From contig OY760142.1 of the NCBI GenBank assembly GCA_963663225.1, positions 2,080,001-2,144,000 of the forward strand: a DNA stretch of 64,000 bases, given 5' to 3'. Every line of letters starts with the position of its first letter. Within the stretch, counting starts at the first letter, position 1. Below are positions 27,926 to 34,428 of this stretch, in pieces. Source of the stretch: Nitrospirota bacterium (GTDB taxonomy: Bacteria; Nitrospirota; UBA9217). A model generated the notes under the pieces. It had not been told where the DNA came from. It saw only the letters and a list, made by a program, of their open reading frames with translations, and made no database searches. Made by a program: the position numbers and the translations under genes.

Positions 27926-28240
27926 ATGAGAACACTGCTGGGACTTGGATTGATTATTGCGCTGTCTATGCCGTCGCTTGCATGGTGTAAAGTCGGGGGA
28001 GATGATGTCACGTATCGCCCGCCGGGATCAGACACGGTTGTATTCAGTCATGACTTTCACACAAGAAAAGGCATGAAGTGCAGTGACTGCCACTACAAAT
28101 TATTTTCAATCACGGGTGGACGAGCGAAGAAAGCAACGATGCAGGAAATGGAAAAAGGGCAATCCTGCGGAGCATGCCATTCCGGCCAGAAAGCATTTAG
28201 CGTAAAAGACAAGGTGAACTGTAAAAAATGTCACAAGTAA
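27926..28240 (+). CDS. Periplasmic triheme cytochrome c (c7/c3-like)
   Basis: Signal peptide; VVFSHDFH distal His ligands; CSDCH, CGACH, CKKCH. Confidence 0.9.
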   Translation: MRTLLGLGLIIALSMPSLAWCKVGGDDVTYRPPGSDTVVFSHDFHTRKGMKCSDCHYKLFSITGGRAKKATMQEMEKGQSCGACHSGQKAFSVKDKVNCKKCHK

Positions 28241-28374: not shown

Positions 28375-29625
28375 TCAACGAGCAGTTTTCTTGGTATGAA
28401 AACGACCTCGTTTTGGAGCGGACCGGGAAGGATGTTGCCGTGCTTCCGGGCGATGCTTTTCTTCAGGTGAACGTCTGATTTCCTGCGCATACATGGTTTC
28501 ATCAGCCCATTCTACCGGAATTTTCTGCCCGATATATTTTTCGATTTCTTCAAGTGAGTAGACATACTCTTCATCCGCCAGACTCACCGCCTTGCCGCTT
28601 GCGCCGGCTCGTCCGGTCCGGCCGATCCGGTGCACGTAATCCTCGGCGTCCTGCGGAAGATCATAATTGATTACATGCGTCACCCCCTCCACATGGATGC
28701 CGCGGCTTGCAACATCCGTTGCAACGAGGATGGGGAGTTTTCCTTCCTTAAAGTCGGCGAGTATGCGCAGCCGCTTCTTTTGTTCTATGGTGCCGGTAAT
28801 GGCTTGCGCTTTCCAGGAATTGCGGTTCAGGCGTTCCACGACCATATCGGCTGCGCGGCGGGTATTCACGAAAATCAGAGTGCGTGACGGGTTCTCCTTC
28901 CGGAGGATCCCGAGCAGCAGGGAGAGTTTTTCATGTTTGCCGACGTGGTACAGGACCTGGACTACTTGTTCAACGGTGACTTTTTCCGGTGTGATTGATA
29001 TTTTTTCCGGAAGATTCATATGCTCGTACGCAAGCTCCATGACACGATAGGAGAGGGTGGCGGAGAAAAGCATGGACTGGCGTTTCGTGTAGGGCGGAAG
29101 CTTTTTGATCAAATACCGCAAATCATCGATGAATCCCATGTCGAACATGCGGTCCGCTTCGTCGATGATGAGATACCGGGTTTTTTTCAAACTGTATATG
29201 CGCTGTTTATAGTAATCGATGAGCCGGCCCGGAGTGCCGATGAGGATATCTATTCCTTTTTGAAGGGCGTCCATTTGCTTCCGGTAATCGATTCCTCCAT
29301 AGACCGCAAGACAGCGGAAGCCGGTAAATTTCCCTAATCGCTCTGCTTCGTGATATATCTGGTCGGCGAGTTCCCGTGTCGGAGCAATAATGAGTGCCTG
29401 AGGAGAGGATGAAGAGTCGATAGCCGGATTCTTTACCATGCGGGTAAACAGTGAGATGAGAAAAGCGGCGGTTTTTCCTGTTCCCGTTTGAGCCTGCGCG
29501 GCAACATCTTCCCCCCGTATGGCTCTCGGGATCACTGCTTCCTGCACAGGAGTACATACCGTGAAGCCCGCGTGTTCAATGCCTTGTTTCACAGCATAAG
29601 GCACATCAAGTTCTGCAAAATTCAT
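28375..29625 (-). CDS. DEAD-box RNA helicase (RhlB-like)
   Basis: Q-motif GFTVCTPVQ, AQTGTGKT, PTRELA, DEAD, SAT, HRIGRTGR. Confidence 0.93.
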   Translation of the reverse strand: MNFAELDVPYAVKQGIEHAGFTVCTPVQEAVIPRAIRGEDVAAQAQTGTGKTAAFLISLFTRMVKNPAIDSSSSPQALIIAPTRELADQIYHEAERLGKFTGFRCLAVYGGIDYRKQMDALQKGIDILIGTPGRLIDYYKQRIYSLKKTRYLIIDEADRMFDMGFIDDLRYLIKKLPPYTKRQSMLFSATLSYRVMELAYEHMNLPEKISITPEKVTVEQVVQVLYHVGKHEKLSLLLGILRKENPSRTLIFVNTRRAADMVVERLNRNSWKAQAITGTIEQKKRLRILADFKEGKLPILVATDVASRGIHVEGVTHVINYDLPQDAEDYVHRIGRTGRAGASGKAVSLADEEYVYSLEEIEKYIGQKIPVEWADETMYAQEIRRSPEEKHRPEARQHPSRSAPKRGRFHTKKTAR

Positions 29626-30103
29626 ACTGCTCCGATTACCGCTGAAGACAATTTGTCAACAAAATATTTTCAGCAGTATACCATAGCTCACGAGGAGAGC
29701 AAAACAAAAATTACGCAGGTTCTTCTCATATGTTTTCGTGAATACGGGGCGGATTGACTTATCGGCATCAGCGTCTGTGTCGTGACACCACGAAATAACG
29801 CTGAAGAGTCGTTCCCGATTTTATTTTTCCTGCAGAATGCAGCTATATTCGTAAATAAATTATTCAAGAAAGTGTCGTTTTTGGCGAGTTTTTTTGCATT
29901 TTCCCCGGCAAAGGAAGCATTTCCCCTTCCAACGCACGGCCGTGCTTGCTGGTTTTTTGGCGGAGCATTAGCAGGCGACATAAACAAAAAAATACTTATA
30001 ACCAGAAAAAACTTTATTTTGCTTGGCTTTTTTTTGCTGTATGTTGATTATTTTGTTGATAAATTGTCTAACATGCTGAAATATAATTTTTTAATTTTTC
30101 TTG

Positions 30104-30137
30104 TTGACAAAATATACACTTTTGTTGTATATTTGTC
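30104..30137 (+). promoter_or_regulatory. Sigma-70 promoter overlapped by an imperfect palindrome (candidate operator)
   Basis: TTGACA-N18-TATATT; arms GACAAAATATACA and TGTATATTTGTC. Confidence 0.6.
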
Positions 30138-30154
30138 CACGAGGTGAACGTAAC

Positions 30155-30721
30155 GTGCTGACAAAACTCTTCTCTTCGACTAGAGCGGAGCTTTTAGGCC
30201 TGTTCTTTAACAATCCGGATGATCGCTTCTACCTGCGGGAAATAGCCCGCCATATCGGCAAAGATGCGGCAGGGATCAAGAGGGAGCTGGACAATCTGGT
30301 CAAGCTGGGACTTCTTGCGCGGGAGAAGCGGGGTGTTCAAAAATACTACTTCGCGAATAAGAGCTCTCCTGTTTTTTCCGAAATGAAGGGGTTGGTTTTT
30401 AAAACAACGGGAGTGCAGGGGGCCATGAAGGCGTCGCTTTCCCGGCTGAAAGGCGTCAAGGCCGCATTTATTTACGGGTCCTACGCCAAGGGAGCAGAAA
30501 AGGAAGACAGCAATATAAACCTTATGGTTGTCGGCCAAGCGAACATCACGGAATTGAACGACATGGTTATGGGCCTGGAAGAGAAGCTGAAGCGGGATAT
30601 CGATTATCTTGTTTTTGATGAGCAGGAATATCGAAAACGCAAAGAGACAAAGGATCCGTTCGTCAGGGAAATCCTGAAAGGGAAGAAAATATTCCTGGTG
30701 GGCAAAGAAGATGAATTATAG
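30155..30721 (+). CDS. wHTH + minimal nucleotidyltransferase (MNT) protein with degenerate catalytic motif
   Basis: YLREIAR...IKRELDNLVKLGLL wHTH; FIYGSYAKG-x6-NIN where the family has DxD; GTG start after GAGGTG. Confidence 0.85.
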   Translation: MLTKLFSSTRAELLGLFFNNPDDRFYLREIARHIGKDAAGIKRELDNLVKLGLLAREKRGVQKYYFANKSSPVFSEMKGLVFKTTGVQGAMKASLSRLKGVKAAFIYGSYAKGAEKEDSNINLMVVGQANITELNDMVMGLEEKLKRDIDYLVFDEQEYRKRKETKDPFVREILKGKKIFLVGKEDEL

Positions 30722-31196
30722 CCAGCTGAAGGAAACGGGAATCGTTGAAGAACGGGCTGCCGAGGTTTCGGAGATTATTGCGCTGGTAACGAGAGTGGAC
30801 CGTGATCTCGAAACAAGCAGATTGCTGTACGGGAAAGATGAAGAATGGGCCTTTGTAGCCGCGTATCAGGCTATGGCTCGTTCAGCGCGAGCGCTGATCC
30901 TGTCCGAAGGATACAGGCCAAAGGTTGTTCGGGGAAGGGACGCTCAGAAGACCGTGGTGACGGCGGCAGGCGTTATTCTTGGTGAACAGTTCAAGAGCCT
31001 CACGAACAAATTTGACCGGATGCGCAGAAAATACCAAAGCTTTATTGAAGATGCGGGCAGGATTATCTCCCGGTATGAGGCGGGGCAGGCCATTAAAGAT
31101 GCGGAGGAATTCACCGCGCTGGTCAATGCAAGAATCCGCGAGAAATATTCTCAGTTATCACTGCTGAATGATGTTCCTCAGCTTGTTTCAAGATAA
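30711..31196 (+). CDS. HEPN-domain protein with degenerate RNase motif
   Basis: RDLETS, WAFVAAYQAM, ALILSEGYRP, FDRMRRK, EAGQAIKDAEEF; overlaps MNT stop; protein contains no His. Confidence 0.8.
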   Translation: MNYSQLKETGIVEERAAEVSEIIALVTRVDRDLETSRLLYGKDEEWAFVAAYQAMARSARALILSEGYRPKVVRGRDAQKTVVTAAGVILGEQFKSLTNKFDRMRRKYQSFIEDAGRIISRYEAGQAIKDAEEFTALVNARIREKYSQLSLLNDVPQLVSR

Positions 31197-31243
31197 GGCC
31201 GCTTAGTTCACGAACGCGGTATGCCGAAAGGGGGTGGACAACA

Positions 31244-31300
31244 ATGGCAGCCAAGAAGAAAGCCAAGAAGAAGGCCAAGAAGAAAGCTAAGAAAAAGTAG
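31244..31300 (+). CDS. 18-aa Lys/Ala micropeptide MAAKKKAKKKAKKKAKKK
   Basis: RBS GAAAGGGGGTG at 31226-31236, ATG, four AKKK repeats that differ only at synonymous positions, TAG stop. Confidence 0.75.
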   Translation: MAAKKKAKKKAKKKAKKK

Positions 31301-31481
31301 TTTTCATAATGTAGTCCCCGATGAGGGACCGCCGGAGGCACTGAGACATGCCTCCGGCGCATTTACCGGAAACACTATCAACGAAATAAGAGTGCACTAT
31401 AAAAGAGTCCTTTTTTCGGACTGACTGGTCATAATTCCATCTTTCAACTATTCTCAGGATGAAAGGGGGTGATTTCATACC

Positions 31482-31538
31482 ATGGCGGCTAAAAAAAAGG
31501 CTCCGGCAAAAAAGGCAAAGAAGACCACAAAAAAATAA
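31482..31538 (+). CDS. 18-aa Lys-rich micropeptide MAAKKKAPAKKAKKTTKK
   Basis: Identical RBS GAAAGGGGGTG at 31461-31471; same MAAKKKA start encoded by different codons; TAA TAA stops. Confidence 0.72.
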   Translation: MAAKKKAPAKKAKKTTKK

Positions 31539-31590
31539 TAACCGAGACGGGGCAATGGTACAAAGGCCATGTCCTCAGTATTGAGTCTTT

Positions 31591-31625
31591 ACCACGAAGC
31601 TGGTCTTCGTGGTTTTGTTTTTTTA
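31591..31625 (+). terminator. Rho-independent terminator
   Basis: ACCACGAAG-ctggt-CTTCGTGGT followed by T-rich tail. Confidence 0.8.
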
Positions 31626-31766
31626 CCATATGCAAACGCGAAGTTTTCTGCTGTAGTTTTGCATAAATTCCGGTATTATTACTGCAAGCTTTCCCCGTAC
31701 GGGCAGATATATGACCAGTCTCTGCTTTTCCCGCGACCGGAAGGCAGCCGAAGAACGTCGATTCCT

Positions 31767-32099
31767 ATGCGTAAGCGGAATTATATAAAAATTGATCGAG
31801 GTTCCCGGACCGACGGACGGAAGAAATTGCTTATTGCGCTCGGCATTCTTCTTACTGCTTACCTCATATCGTCGTGCATTTTCGGGGAGATGGGGCTTAT
31901 AAAATACTACCGTATGAAAATGCAGTGCAATGCCTTGACAGACGAAATTGCGCTCCTGAAGCGAGACAATGCAAAACTCAGAAAACATGTCTATTCCCTG
32001 AAAAACGATCCTCTCTACATCGAACGCATCGCGCGTGACAAATTGGGCCTTGCACGCCCAGGGGAGATAGTGTACTATTACAGCGAACAGAAAGACTGA
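31767..32099 (+). CDS. ftsB: Septum formation initiator FtsB/DivIC family
   Basis: One TM, FGEMGL, coiled coil, IERIARDKLGLARPGE. Confidence 0.82.
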   Translation: MRKRNYIKIDRGSRTDGRKKLLIALGILLTAYLISSCIFGEMGLIKYYRMKMQCNALTDEIALLKRDNAKLRKHVYSLKNDPLYIERIARDKLGLARPGEIVYYYSEQKD

Positions 32100-32223
32100 A
32101 GTACTTTACAGAAACCGAATCATTGCTTTGTGCCGTAGTGAACTGCAGAAATGACCCAGGCAGTTTGATCGCAGCATGCCGTAGGGACCCAGGGGGCGGA
32201 GGTGCCCCTGCTTCGCCACGTCC

Positions 32224-34428
32224 ATGTCAGACCATCCACTTTCCATAGCATTTATCTGGCACATGCACCAGCCCTATTACAAGGATGACATTACAGGGTC
32301 TTACATCCTTCCCTGGGTGCGGCTGCATGGAACGAAAGATTATTATGACATGCCGGCACTCCTTGCCGATTTTCCCCAGGTCCACCAGACATTCAATCTT
32401 GTTCCTTCACTTCTCAAGCAGATTCTCGATTATGTTGAGAATGGAGCCACGGACAAGTTTCTCGACCTGACGCTCAAACCGGCGGCAGACCTGGACCCCG
32501 AAGATAAACAATTCCTGCTTAAGAATTCCTTTATGGCGAACTGGGACACCATGATTAAGCCTTACCGGTCGTATTGGCAGCTGCTCGACCGCAGAGGCTA
32601 CAGTGTTGCCGACAACGACCTCCAGAATGCCATGCGGTATTTCAGCACGCAGGATTATCTCGATTTGCAGGTCTGGTTCAACCTGACCTGGTTTGATCCG
32701 CTCTTTAAACAAAACGATCCTTTTTTGAAGGAATTGGTGCAAAAAGGTGCCGGATTTACCGAAAAAGAAAAGCAGCTTCTTGTACAGAAACAGAGAGACG
32801 TCATGGCGCTTATCATTCCTGAGTACAGGCGCCTTGCAGAAATAGGCAGCATCGAGCTTACCACCACCCCGTTTTATCATCCCATTCTGCCCTTGCTGTA
32901 TGATACTGATCTTGCGAGGGTTGCCGTTCCCGATATCCACCTCCCCGCGGAGCGCTTTGCACACCCGGAGGACGCAAAAATCCAGGTTGAACGCGCCATT
33001 GCCTATCATGAAAAACTTTTTGGATTGCGGCCGGCCGGCATGTGGCCTGCAGAAGGATCAGTTGCCGAAGACATTATTCCATTGCTTGCTGATGCCGGAA
33101 TCAAATGGATTGGCACGGATGAAGGAGTGCTCGCCCGGTCGCTCGGCATCCATCTTGATCGAGATTTTTCGGGAGTATTGAAAAACCCCGAAGCCCTCTA
33201 TAAACCGTATCTGGCGGGCAAAGGGGGAAAAAATGTTTCCATCGTATTCCGTGACCATACGCTTTCCGACCTTGTAGGTTTCGTGTATTCCAAATGGGAT
33301 TATAAAAATGCGGCAAATGATCTTATTGACCGGCTCCATCGCATACGGCAGGGGCTGTCACACGGTCCGCACTTGGTTTCCATCATCCTGGACGGAGAAA
33401 ACGCCTGGGAATATTATCAAAACGACGGAAGAGATTTCTTCCTGTATCTCTATGAGCGCCTGAGCAAAGAGCAGGGGCTTCGGTGCGTGACGGTAGGAGA
33501 ATATCTGAGGGAAAACTCCGCTCAGGCGGGCATTGAACGGCTTCATGCCGGCTCGTGGATTAATGCAAATTATCGGATCTGGATCGGGCATGAAGAGGAC
33601 AACCGGGCCTGGGATCTGCTTGCGCAGACGCGCCGGGCGCTGACGGACTATGCGTCCGGAAACGGTGATTCGTCTAAGCTGGCCCAGGCATGGGAAGAGA
33701 TATACATTGCCGAAGGGAGTGACTGGTGCTGGTGGTATGGCGACGATCATTTTTCTGAAAATGATGCAGAGTTTGATCTTTTGTTCAGAACGCACTTGAT
33801 GAATGTGTATCGCACCATAGGCCTTGATATTCCGGACGATCTTCGGATACCCATACTTCGTGAAGACCGGCAGGCGCTCCCGACGGTCGAACTGACGGCT
33901 TTGATTTCTCCTGCTATTGACGGACAAGTCACGAATTATTTCGAATGGCTGCCGGCGGGTTGTTATGACGTGAGCCAGGGAGGGGGGGCCATGCACCGGG
34001 GGGCCTCCATTATCACGCATATTTATTATGGCTTCGATCTGAAAAATATGTTTATCCGGCTTGATCCCGGCGGAAATCTTAATGATGCTAAAGTCTCAGA
34101 TTTGGCTTTTTTCATCAATTTTTTAAATCCTCGCGGTCTTGATGTGGAAGTGCGCATCGTTCCTCAGGAGCGGCAGGTGAACGCAGCCCTTTTCCGTGGT
34201 GAAAACGGTGACCGCAAACAACTTGCAGACATCCATACCGTTGCCGCGAAGGATATCATCGAACTTGCCGTACCCTTTGACCTCATAGGTCTGCGGGCCA
34301 ATGACGAGGTGCAGCTCTTTATCACGGTTGAAAGGACCGGCTCCGAAGTTGAAAAATGGCCCTACCGCGGATATATTCAGTTCAAAGTGCCTACCGAGGA
34401 TTTTGAGGCAACTATGTGGCAGGTCTAA
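32224..34428 (+). CDS. Glycoside hydrolase family 57 (amylopullulanase-like)
   Basis: WHMHQP, PWVRLH, HPILPL, WPAEG, LDGENAWE, AEGSDWCWW. Confidence 0.92.
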   Translation: MSDHPLSIAFIWHMHQPYYKDDITGSYILPWVRLHGTKDYYDMPALLADFPQVHQTFNLVPSLLKQILDYVENGATDKFLDLTLKPAADLDPEDKQFLLKNSFMANWDTMIKPYRSYWQLLDRRGYSVADNDLQNAMRYFSTQDYLDLQVWFNLTWFDPLFKQNDPFLKELVQKGAGFTEKEKQLLVQKQRDVMALIIPEYRRLAEIGSIELTTTPFYHPILPLLYDTDLARVAVPDIHLPAERFAHPEDAKIQVERAIAYHEKLFGLRPAGMWPAEGSVAEDIIPLLADAGIKWIGTDEGVLARSLGIHLDRDFSGVLKNPEALYKPYLAGKGGKNVSIVFRDHTLSDLVGFVYSKWDYKNAANDLIDRLHRIRQGLSHGPHLVSIILDGENAWEYYQNDGRDFFLYLYERLSKEQGLRCVTVGEYLRENSAQAGIERLHAGSWINANYRIWIGHEEDNRAWDLLAQTRRALTDYASGNGDSSKLAQAWEEIYIAEGSDWCWWYGDDHFSENDAEFDLLFRTHLMNVYRTIGLDIPDDLRIPILREDRQALPTVELTALISPAIDGQVTNYFEWLPAGCYDVSQGGGAMHRGASIITHIYYGFDLKNMFIRLDPGGNLNDAKVSDLAFFINFLNPRGLDVEVRIVPQERQVNAALFRGENGDRKQLADIHTVAAKDIIELAVPFDLIGLRANDEVQLFITVERTGSEVEKWPYRGYIQFKVPTEDFEATMWQV

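Follow-up and report, generated by a model that had tools for sequence, protein, structure and literature searches.

A conserved, catalytically degenerate MNT-HEPN gene pair followed by lysine-rich micro-genes in Nitrospirota

Introduction

The closest described relatives of the locus reported here are the type VII toxin-antitoxin modules, in which a minimal nucleotidyltransferase (MNT) is paired with a HEPN protein, as in HepT/MntA of Shewanella (PDB 7bxo/6m6u) and a Legionella system (PDB 8xeh). MNT-HEPN modules have been described as patchy and mobile (Makarova et al. 2009, PMC2701414), and the Tyr of the R[HN]xxxY motif of HEPN domains has been proposed as a site of nucleotidylation (Anantharaman et al. 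2013, PMC3710099). Here we analyse a stretch of 64,000 nucleotides from a Nitrospirota bacterium (assembly GCA_963663225.1, contig OY760142.1, positions 2,080,001 to 2,144,000), which we call the window and whose own numbering we use. Between 30100 and 31625 its plus strand carries, in this order, a promoter with an inverted repeat, a gene for a winged helix-turn-helix (wHTH) protein fused to an MNT domain, a HEPN gene, two short open reading frames (sORF1 and sORF2) for lysine-rich peptides, and a terminator.

This locus shares with the type VII modules the MNT fold, a HEPN-fold partner encoded directly downstream in an overlapping frame, and the antitoxin-first gene order. Unlike them, it has lost both the DxD of the MNT and the R[HN]...Y of the HEPN, its HEPN is of the classical PF05168 type rather than DUF86, a wHTH is fused to the N-terminus of the MNT, and lysine-rich micro-genes follow the pair; moreover, genomes that have it mostly give a single match, kept in synteny and under strong purifying selection, instead of a patchy, mobile and often multi-copy distribution. 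Because the catalytic and distributional features fail while the folds and the gene order are kept, we regard the pair as derived from type VII modules but not as a working member. We found no published description of such a locus in the literature searched, supplements and subscription journals lying outside that search. Taken together, our analyses indicate that the locus is a real, conserved and undescribed derivative of the HEPN-MNT family, for which we infer a mechanism that is weighed below.

Results

The pair keeps its folds and has lost both conserved motifs

The first protein contains an MNT domain by Pfam (PF18765, E 4.6e-9, 36.8 bits against a cut-off of 26.9; PF01909, 25.2 bits, cut-off 21) and scores 28.6 bits with the NCBIfam MntA_antitoxin equivalog, whose cut-off is 60. 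Its AlphaFold2 (AF2) model has a predicted local distance difference test (pLDDT) score of 89.2, and in Foldseek comparisons the C-terminal half matched 8xeh_E (MNT, E 9.8e-5), 7bxo (MntA) and 1no5. Residues 2-67 of the model show the secondary structure H-H-E-H-H-E-E of a wHTH, and the N-terminal 90 residues superpose on the ArsR/SmtB repressors SmtB, SqrR, HlyU and CzrA (E 4.7e-4 to 3e-3). Unlike in those repressors, the Pfam models HTH_20 and MarR_2 stay below their cut-offs over these 90 residues, and the dimerisation helix is replaced by the degenerate MNT (pseudo-MNT) domain. The wHTH is the best-conserved part of the protein.

Where PDB 2rff reads GSRARGDYLDTSDIDIL, the window protein reads GSYAKGAEKEDSNINL; it carries GS...SNINL, which departs from the catalytic pattern GS-x9-11-DxD. 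In the 28 orthologues taken from whole genomes DxD is never intact, its place being taken by NIN (one NVN), DVN, EID, AVD or TVD, and several of the 28 have lost the GS as well.

The second protein is a HEPN by Pfam (PF05168, E 1.1e-7, 32.4 bits, cut-off 22). The best structural matches of its AF2 model (pLDDT 88.7, predicted template modelling score 0.83) are the HEPN proteins 2hsb, 3o10, 1ufb, 1wol and 1o3u, at E 1.4e-3 or weaker, and a sequence search of the PDB returned 0 matches. The protein reads DRMRRKYQSFIED where the partners of catalytically intact relatives (canonical pairs, see below) show R.KR[HN]...Y, and only 2 of 26 orthologues have a His at the motif position. A His-less HEPN is not unusual in itself, because many MNT-linked HEPN domains lack Rx4-6H according to Anantharaman et al. 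(2013, PMC3710099); the unusual features are the dead MNT and the joint loss of both motifs. An earlier note on this DNA, made from its letters alone, had claimed that both catalytic motifs are lost, and comparison with relatives bears this out: DxD is intact in 0/28 orthologues versus 135/150 family representatives, and R[HN] is absent here versus present in 53/53 canonical partners. Judging from these sequences, the metal site of the MNT and the conserved motif of its partner have degenerated together. Both proteins are basic, with isoelectric points (pI) of 9.5 (MNT) and 9.2 (HEPN).

There are described cases in which a toxin-antitoxin-derived pair is reused and the HEPN RNase motif is lost, namely GlnE, kanamycin nucleotidyltransferase and MtlR (domesticated NTase-HEPN or inactive HEPN proteins in the account of PMC3710099). 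In those cases, as that account presents them, the nucleotidyltransferase stays active, whereas here both partners are degenerate and DNA binding appears to be retained.

Motif loss and micro-gene linkage map to a single split of the family

A profile search of 1.84 billion representative proteins indicated that the wHTH-MNT architecture of about 190 amino acids (aa) defines a large unnamed family, with 715 proteins at E < 1e-30. GS...SDxD is kept in 135 of the 150 best representatives, the few exceptions including the closest relatives of the query. As a control we used 80 metagenome loci of the SDxD-bearing, canonical branch. A downstream open reading frame (ORF) of 135-170 aa is present in 53 of these, near-overlapping in most, and all 53 carry R.KR[HN]...Y; PF05168 scored in 4/6 of the downstream ORFs tested. 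The canonical pairs thus share with the window pair the two-domain architecture of about 190 aa, at 35-50% identity, and mostly an overlapping HEPN ORF of about 150 aa. They differ in keeping both motifs and in what follows, since a Lys-rich ORF lies within 1.7 kb in 0/80 canonical loci.

Downstream of the degenerate pair, by contrast, a Lys-rich ORF with a Shine-Dalgarno sequence was found in 28/28 loci from related genomes. A second set comprised 80 loci of species-representative genomes; with an ORF length limit of 45 aa, 77 of them showed such an ORF. Of the misses, L097 holds a 74-aa Lys/Thr/Ala ORF that exceeds the limit, L056 breaks off within the sORF and L080 within the MNT gene (L numbers denote loci, G numbers genomes, and f1, f9 and the like are family labels of Nitrospirota genomes); with these resolved, 79/79 informative loci are linked. 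Coordinate lists matched by eye gave a further 15/15 cases across families. The linkage holds in a clade at 44-48% MNT identity that lacks the HEPN gene and keeps the MNT gene and the sORF, and it holds where the upstream genes are unrelated (bifunctional nuclease, DNA-alkylation repair protein, DksA, permease, AP endonuclease). Roughly 17-116 nucleotides (nt), measured by eye, separate the upstream stop codon from the first sORF ATG, with about 18 nt in L093 and L094. The same gene arrangement was found again in every informative related locus. Of the co-occurrence of MNT, HEPN and sORFs that the earlier note had suggested, the link between MNT gene and sORF stands, whereas the HEPN is dispensable, a whole clade doing without it. 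Orthologues that keep DxD and lack the sORFs, the outcome against which that note had set its proposal, were not seen among the 28 loci.

One branch (SH-aLRT 99) of a tree built from 80 MNT sequences sets all 35 sORF-linked MNTs, along with 5 degenerate representatives of unknown context, apart from all 34 canonical MNTs and 6 other representatives; the canonical pairs are the sister group. Because this one branch separates both groups, the loss of the motifs and the linkage to the sORFs map to a single split.

We then compared the window MNT protein with 401 genomes sampled from the phylum (E <= 1e-38). The gene was present in 141/401, almost always with one match per genome. Families f1 (57/63), f4 (7/7), f13 (5/5), f24 (13/14) and f26 (13/13) are at or near full occupancy; the gene was not found at this threshold in f9 (0/76), f17 (0/40) or f10 (0/28), and the count for f11 (18/35) is probably too low, because the cut-off is borderline for this most distant clade. 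The order helicase/MNT/HEPN is kept in 22/22 f1 loci, and FtsB was found in 16 of the 22. PMC2701414 describes MNT-HEPN modules as patchy and mobile, the opposite of this distribution. Median pairwise ratios of non-synonymous to synonymous substitution rates (dN/dS) within f1 were 0.049 for the MNT gene (wHTH half 0.051, NTase half 0.053) and 0.072 for the HEPN gene; the comparison that the earlier note had proposed therefore points to strong purifying selection on both genes, with values nowhere near 1.

A few genomes have an MNT match that is broken into two parts or carries one in-frame stop (G211:C6:919389-919953; G277, G205, G207), which may reflect either assembly error in metagenome bins or occasional decay.

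The micro-genes show the substitution pattern of protein-coding genes

For coding statistics we pooled 138 sORFs from 80 loci; the difference counts are pairwise and so not independent. An ATG start is present in 131/138, all stop with TAG or TAA, and lengths vary in whole codons from 12 to 30, with 1-3 sORFs per locus. Nucleotide differences at codon positions 1/2/3 number 791/292/3636 (77% third-position), and 3095 codon differences are synonymous versus 890 non-synonymous. By this pattern the sORFs are real protein-coding genes. The sequence AAAGG[AG]GGTG, which we take to be complementary to most of the 16S rRNA 3' tail, occurs at 21 sites genome-wide, 4 of which precede the four Lys-rich sORFs. 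A longer sORF1 starting at an upstream ATG (MPKGGGQIMAAKKK...) was rejected, because that ATG is not in frame in the window and several loci have ACC or AAC in its place.

The pooled peptides consist of 58.5% K, 26.6% A, 9.3% T and 3.8% P and have no hydrophobic segment. AAG makes up 0.705 of their Lys codons versus 0.381 in 929 long ORFs of the window's genome, a preference that would agree with avoidance of poly(A) runs as well as with high expression. When six orthologous peptides (20-30 aa) were compared with a collection of 15 billion proteins, 0/6 matched, and no Pfam or NCBIfam model matched them either. Some lineages have longer ORFs at this position (68, 74 or 210 aa), which match the short ones in composition. 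With Pfam HC2 (PF07382, cut-off 40) the 68-aa ORF scored 33.2 bits (E 7e-8) and a 74-aa ORF 28.5 bits (E 2e-6); a third long orthologue (74 aa) had no HC2 match, and the 18-aa peptides of the window are too short for profile tools. As these scores stay below the cut-off, we use 'histone-like' for composition and not for family membership.

Compared by composition, the peptides resemble Hc2 of Chlamydia (PF07382) and the tails of AlgP and PhaF of Pseudomonas in their Lys/Ala(/Thr/Pro) repeats and in the variation of repeat number; they differ from them in being mostly short free peptides without a folded domain, encoded in 1-3 separate cistrons. The roles reported for these proteins are DNA compaction for Hc2 (PMC2848022), spacing of polyphosphate granules for AlgP (PMC9239181) and RNA binding for PhaF (PMC12818456).

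Some of the micropeptides end in a single Cys (...KKGKC, ...KKKKC, ...KKKRC), as seen in L023/L024, L025/L026 and L082-L090 and also in the peptide at position 1435 of the window's genome. Such a terminal residue may serve in a disulfide or a metal site, or may be modified.

A promoter under a genome-unique inverted repeat precedes the pair

The coordinates of all elements are collected in Table 1. A scan for promoters was by itself not above chance (5 sites in the region versus 3.7 +/- 2.0 in shuffles); the promoter ahead of the MNT gene is, however, conserved over the f1 loci and recognisable in distant clades. Promoter and inverted repeat are nearly invariant within f1, as is the block upstream of them in an alignment of 45 f1-family sequences. 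The outer arms of the repeat (30100-30111 / 30132-30143) are 83% complementary and the inner arms (30110-30118 / 30126-30134) 100%. The pattern GT[TG]GA[CT]AA-N14-26-TT[GA]TC[AC]AC occurs once in the 3.26-Mb genome, at the MNT promoter, and 0 times in 5 shuffled megabases. As in ArsR/SmtB systems, the palindrome overlaps the promoter; its half-sites lie about 30 bp apart centre to centre, a spacing wider than is usual for ArsR-type operators. In L086, L088, L081 and L094, too, the promoter lies within a pair of the TGTTGACAA-N20-28-TTGTCAACA type. We considered GTGGACAA, at the ribosome-binding site of sORF1, as a further operator half-site and rejected it: the genome holds 59 copies of the 8-mer, and some f1 loci lack it.

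Table 1 Elements of the locus, in window positions
Element	Position	Strand	Details
Conserved upstream block	30042-30072	.	Two further TGTTGA repeats, TGTTGAT at 30042 and TGTTGATAA at 30054; helicase/MNT intergenic region
Candidate operator, inverted repeat CTTGTTGACAAA-N20-TTTGTCCACGAG	30100-30143	.	Spans the promoter; nested perfect repeat AAATATACA-N7-TGTATATTT
Sigma-70-like promoter, TTGACA-18-TATATT	30104-30133	+	11/12 consensus positions matched
ArsR-like wHTH fused to degenerate minimal nucleotidyltransferase (pseudo-MNT, NIN for DxD)	30155-30721	+	188 aa; GTG start
Classical-type HEPN without R[HN]...Y motif (pseudo-HEPN)	30711-31196	+	161 aa; 11-nt overlap with the MNT ORF
Hairpin H0	31198-31220	+	5-bp stem GCCGC/GCGGU; between HEPN stop and sORF1 ribosome-binding site
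Extended Shine-Dalgarno of sORF1, GAAAGGGGGTG	31226-31236	+	Sequence, f1 alignment
sORF1, MAAKKKAKKKAKKKAKKK	31244-31300	+	18 aa; behind GAAAGGGGGTG; orthologues in f1 loci
Two hairpins after sORF1	31314-31359	+	GUCCCC..GGGGAC type, then 10-bp GC stem CGCCGGAGGC..GCCUCCGGCG; followed by AUUU only
Extended Shine-Dalgarno of sORF2, GAAAGGGGGTGA	31461-31472	+	Sequence, f1 alignment
sORF2, MAAKKKAPAKKAKKTTKK	31482-31538	+	18 aa; behind GAAAGGGGGTG
Intrinsic terminator	31591-31625	+	9-bp stem (31591-31613), 5 GC pairs, T run; conserved in f1

The elements listed by the earlier note (a promoter with a palindrome, the wHTH-MNT gene, an overlapping HEPN gene, two 18-aa ORFs and a terminator) are all present in the sequence; for the two ORFs two of its coordinates had to be corrected, to those of Table 1. 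Its description of intact ORFs with genome-like composition among core genes also agrees with what we find, the GC content being 0.483 for the MNT gene and 0.506 for the HEPN gene against 0.494 for the window, with a DEAD-box helicase (28375-29625, minus strand, divergent) and FtsB/DivIC identified by Pfam on either side.

The region between the HEPN gene and the terminator contains several conserved RNA elements. The H0 stem is present in 41/43 aligned sequences (the window and 42 f1 loci), its loop being free in sequence and length, and the GGTGGA spacer after the sORF1 Shine-Dalgarno is conserved. The long stem after sORF1 is conserved in f1 with compensatory changes (GGAGG/CCTCC, GGGAG/CTCCC, CACCGG/CCGGTG); a terminator scan did not call the two hairpins there, which may be either a weak terminator or a 3' stabiliser. 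The fold of the whole region 31190-31625 (z = -2.65) adds nothing beyond these local hairpins, and an Rfam scan of 29500-32300 at E <= 10 gave three matches only, all at chance level.

Contigs from the RNA libraries of two studies, from relatives at 90-99% likeness, cover 30831-31089 and 31194-31528, and one of them bridges sORF1 and its hairpins (31194-31458). Because RNA libraries can contain DNA (library X1 probably is DNA) and contigs cannot show transcript ends, these contigs weakly support expression and nothing further. No contig in X4, X5 or X6 covers the MNT gene, the helicase gene or ftsB, and the uncovered parts are not informative. Co-transcription of the pair and the sORFs is likely. 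A 322-nt wastewater metatranscriptome contig (X6 record 14) matches the Lys-codon repeats only and continues Lys-rich (KGKKAVKKPA...); it comes from another organism.

Micro-genes also occur apart from the pair

Family f9 contains stand-alone sORFs for Lys/Ala-rich peptides of 19-27 aa (MATKKAAKKPAKKAVKKKK and similar; L191-L195, L210), in which a conserved, promoter-like upstream block GAAAATTTTACTCGC...CTGATATA precedes the sORF and a conserved terminator-like GC hairpin follows the stop. An MNT gene was not found within 1.5 kb of these loci. The window's genome itself has two more Lys-rich sORFs with an extended Shine-Dalgarno, neither of them near an MNT gene. One (MACGKKCGAKKKATKKKATKKK, G000:C1:1454027-1454095, plus strand) is flanked by a kinase-like gene and tyrS and carries a terminator of its own; the other (MAKAPKAVKKSKGGKKC, G000:C1:1435-1488, plus strand) adjoins an integrase-like gene. 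Given the f9 sORFs and these others, we regard the peptides as a phylum-wide gene family independent of the pair, with the pair at most a dedicated regulator in some lineages.

We also observed a 181-aa ORF (G000:C1:3830-4375, plus strand) whose first ~60 residues are Lys/Ala/Thr repeats (MPKKAAKKKAIKKTAGKK...), followed by an ordinary-looking non-repetitive region; judged on its sequence, this protein is a larger relative of the micropeptides in composition.

In the distant clades the gene after the sORFs is convergent in 7/9 loci examined, and in L086, L098 and L103 Pfam identifies lpxC, convergent, just downstream of the Lys-rich ORF. As the next gene is usually convergent, the sORFs are the last genes of the unit, not leader peptides. 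Two loci with no MNT gene, L196 and L206, have a 316-aa ORF that looks lpxC-like by eye in the lpxC position.

Discussion

We favour, with moderate confidence, a reading in which the pair has been domesticated into an ArsR-like/pseudo-MNT regulator that controls its own operon, and histone-H1-like micropeptides are what this operon supplies. The starting point would be an MNT-HEPN (type VII-like) module belonging to the wHTH-MNT subfamily, domesticated a single time in an ancestor of a large part of the Nitrospirota. Its N-terminal ArsR-like winged helix would make the MNT protein a DNA-binding regulator, with the pseudo-MNT, and the pseudo-HEPN where present, serving as an oligomerisation or co-factor core. 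The regulator would sit on the inverted repeat over its own promoter and in this way set transcription of the operon, and the peptides, as polycations resembling histone H1, would act on nucleic acids or other polyanions. The modelled ArsR-like fold of the wHTH and the genome-unique palindrome over the promoter suggest the regulator role, and by analogy the pair would work most like an ArsR-type autoregulator with a pseudoenzyme core. The earlier note had likewise proposed domestication into a regulator of the peptides; purifying selection, synteny and the sORF linkage uphold domestication and a link to the peptides, and the regulatory half, suggested by fold and palindrome, is qualified by the f9 sORFs that have no MNT gene.

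A more elaborate version, which we think improbable, makes the pair a pseudoenzyme sensor-repressor that gauges the polyanion load (free nucleic acid, polyphosphate, nucleotides) and doses 2-kDa 'micro-histone' peptides, which would form a class not seen before, be very strongly translated and condense nucleoid or RNA: a homeostat made from a dead toxin-antitoxin module. The idea of an acidic chaperone, in which the pair would bind the polycations by charge, was rejected as unlikely, both proteins being basic.

Several observations weigh against the domesticated-regulator reading. The sORF start pattern was found in 41/76 f9 genomes and the MNT gene in 0/76 of them, so the peptides do not need the pair as a regulator. 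The palindrome was found at 5/8 promoters examined and not at the other three (L084 and the HEPN-less L098 and L103). Only f1 retains the GS motif and the third acidic residue, so a ligand-sensing role of the pseudo-MNT lacks clade-wide support; as GS and the acidic residues do not persist throughout the clade, we downgraded the idea of a nucleotide sensor. Since lpxC lies downstream in several clades, both with and without an MNT gene, some of the linkage may reflect gene order handed down by descent. Within f1 the spacer ahead of sORF2 varies; as it is not conserved and the hairpin after sORF1 may stop transcription, sORF2 may have its own promoter. A contig bridging the HEPN gene and sORF1 was not found in the RNA libraries. 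Finally, DNA binding by the wHTH-MNT protein is a prediction from its modelled fold, and it is their composition that suggests what the peptides might do.

The same observations could be accounted for if the linkage were positional only, the pair having another role or regulating itself, and the Lys-rich genes being independent, abundant and inherited alongside. The stand-alone f9 sORFs with their own upstream and terminator-like elements, the two further sORFs of the window's genome, the presence of lpxC beside the sORF with or without an MNT gene, and the variable spacer before sORF2 all fit this view. We nevertheless consider it unlikely, as the linkage holds in 79/79 informative loci, down to 44% MNT identity and next to differing upstream genes, survives the rearrangement to the helicase/ftsB context in f1, comes with stop-to-ATG gaps of as little as about 18 nt, and has no counterpart in the 80 canonical loci. 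Control could instead be post-transcriptional, the basic pair binding RNA at H0 or at the sORF1 ribosome-binding region and gating translation or stability. The basic charge of both proteins, the conserved stem and free loop of H0 exactly between the HEPN stop and the sORF1 Shine-Dalgarno, and the conserved GGTGGA spacer are consistent with such control, and non-catalytic RNA binding has been proposed for motif-less HEPN domains such as MtlR (Anantharaman et al. 2013, PMC3710099). However, the linkage persists in the clade without HEPN, the MNT protein is most conserved in its wHTH, which is of DNA-binding type, and the evidence on H0 covers f1 only, which leaves RNA binding a distinctly unlikely explanation.

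Descent from a toxin-antitoxin family and the retained antitoxin-first order raise the question of whether the locus is still a conflict or addiction module, with the polycationic peptides as toxin and the pseudo-MNT, with or without HEPN, neutralising or repressing them. Polycations can be harmful in excess, which counts for this explanation; yet sORFs exist without the pair in f9, the MNT gene is nearly always single-copy, vertical and syntenic with dN/dS of 0.05-0.07 for the pair, the peptides have no hydrophobic segment, and the basic character of both proteins argues against direct neutralisation of charge, so that we judge it very unlikely. The remaining alternative treats the sORFs as cis-acting leader peptides, Lys-codon-sensing attenuators of the downstream gene, in keeping with Lys codons making up more than half of the total and with the hairpin after sORF1. 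We give it hardly any credence and rejected it, since the orientation of the next gene contradicts attenuation: this gene lies on the opposite strand in 7/9 distant loci (lpxC in three of them). In addition, a strong terminator follows sORF2 in f1, and orthologues of the peptides reach 68-210 aa.

If the domesticated-regulator reading is right, the locus would be a clear case of full domestication of a toxin-antitoxin module, in which enzyme, target motif and mobility are lost while both genes are constrained across a large part of a phylum, and it would offer a natural system for asking what the MNT and HEPN folds do without catalysis. It also exposes a family of Lys/Ala/Thr micro-proteins, 14-30 residues in length, that gene callers skip; their genes have Shine-Dalgarno sites among the longest of the genome and ribosome-binding sites of the strongest class, which makes abundant products likely. 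Were the peptides abundant counter-ions for DNA, RNA or polyphosphate, they would represent a missing part of the physiology of an environmentally widespread phylum.

Neighbouring genes

The ftsB ORF as listed (31569-32099) begins within the terminator. Its relatives align from about residue 48-76 onward only, and for this reason the real start is probably the ATG at 31767 (MRKRNYIK...). On the other side of the helicase gene, a 104-aa ORF (27926-28240, plus strand) with a signal-like N-terminus and three CxxCH motifs is a candidate small multihaem cytochrome c.

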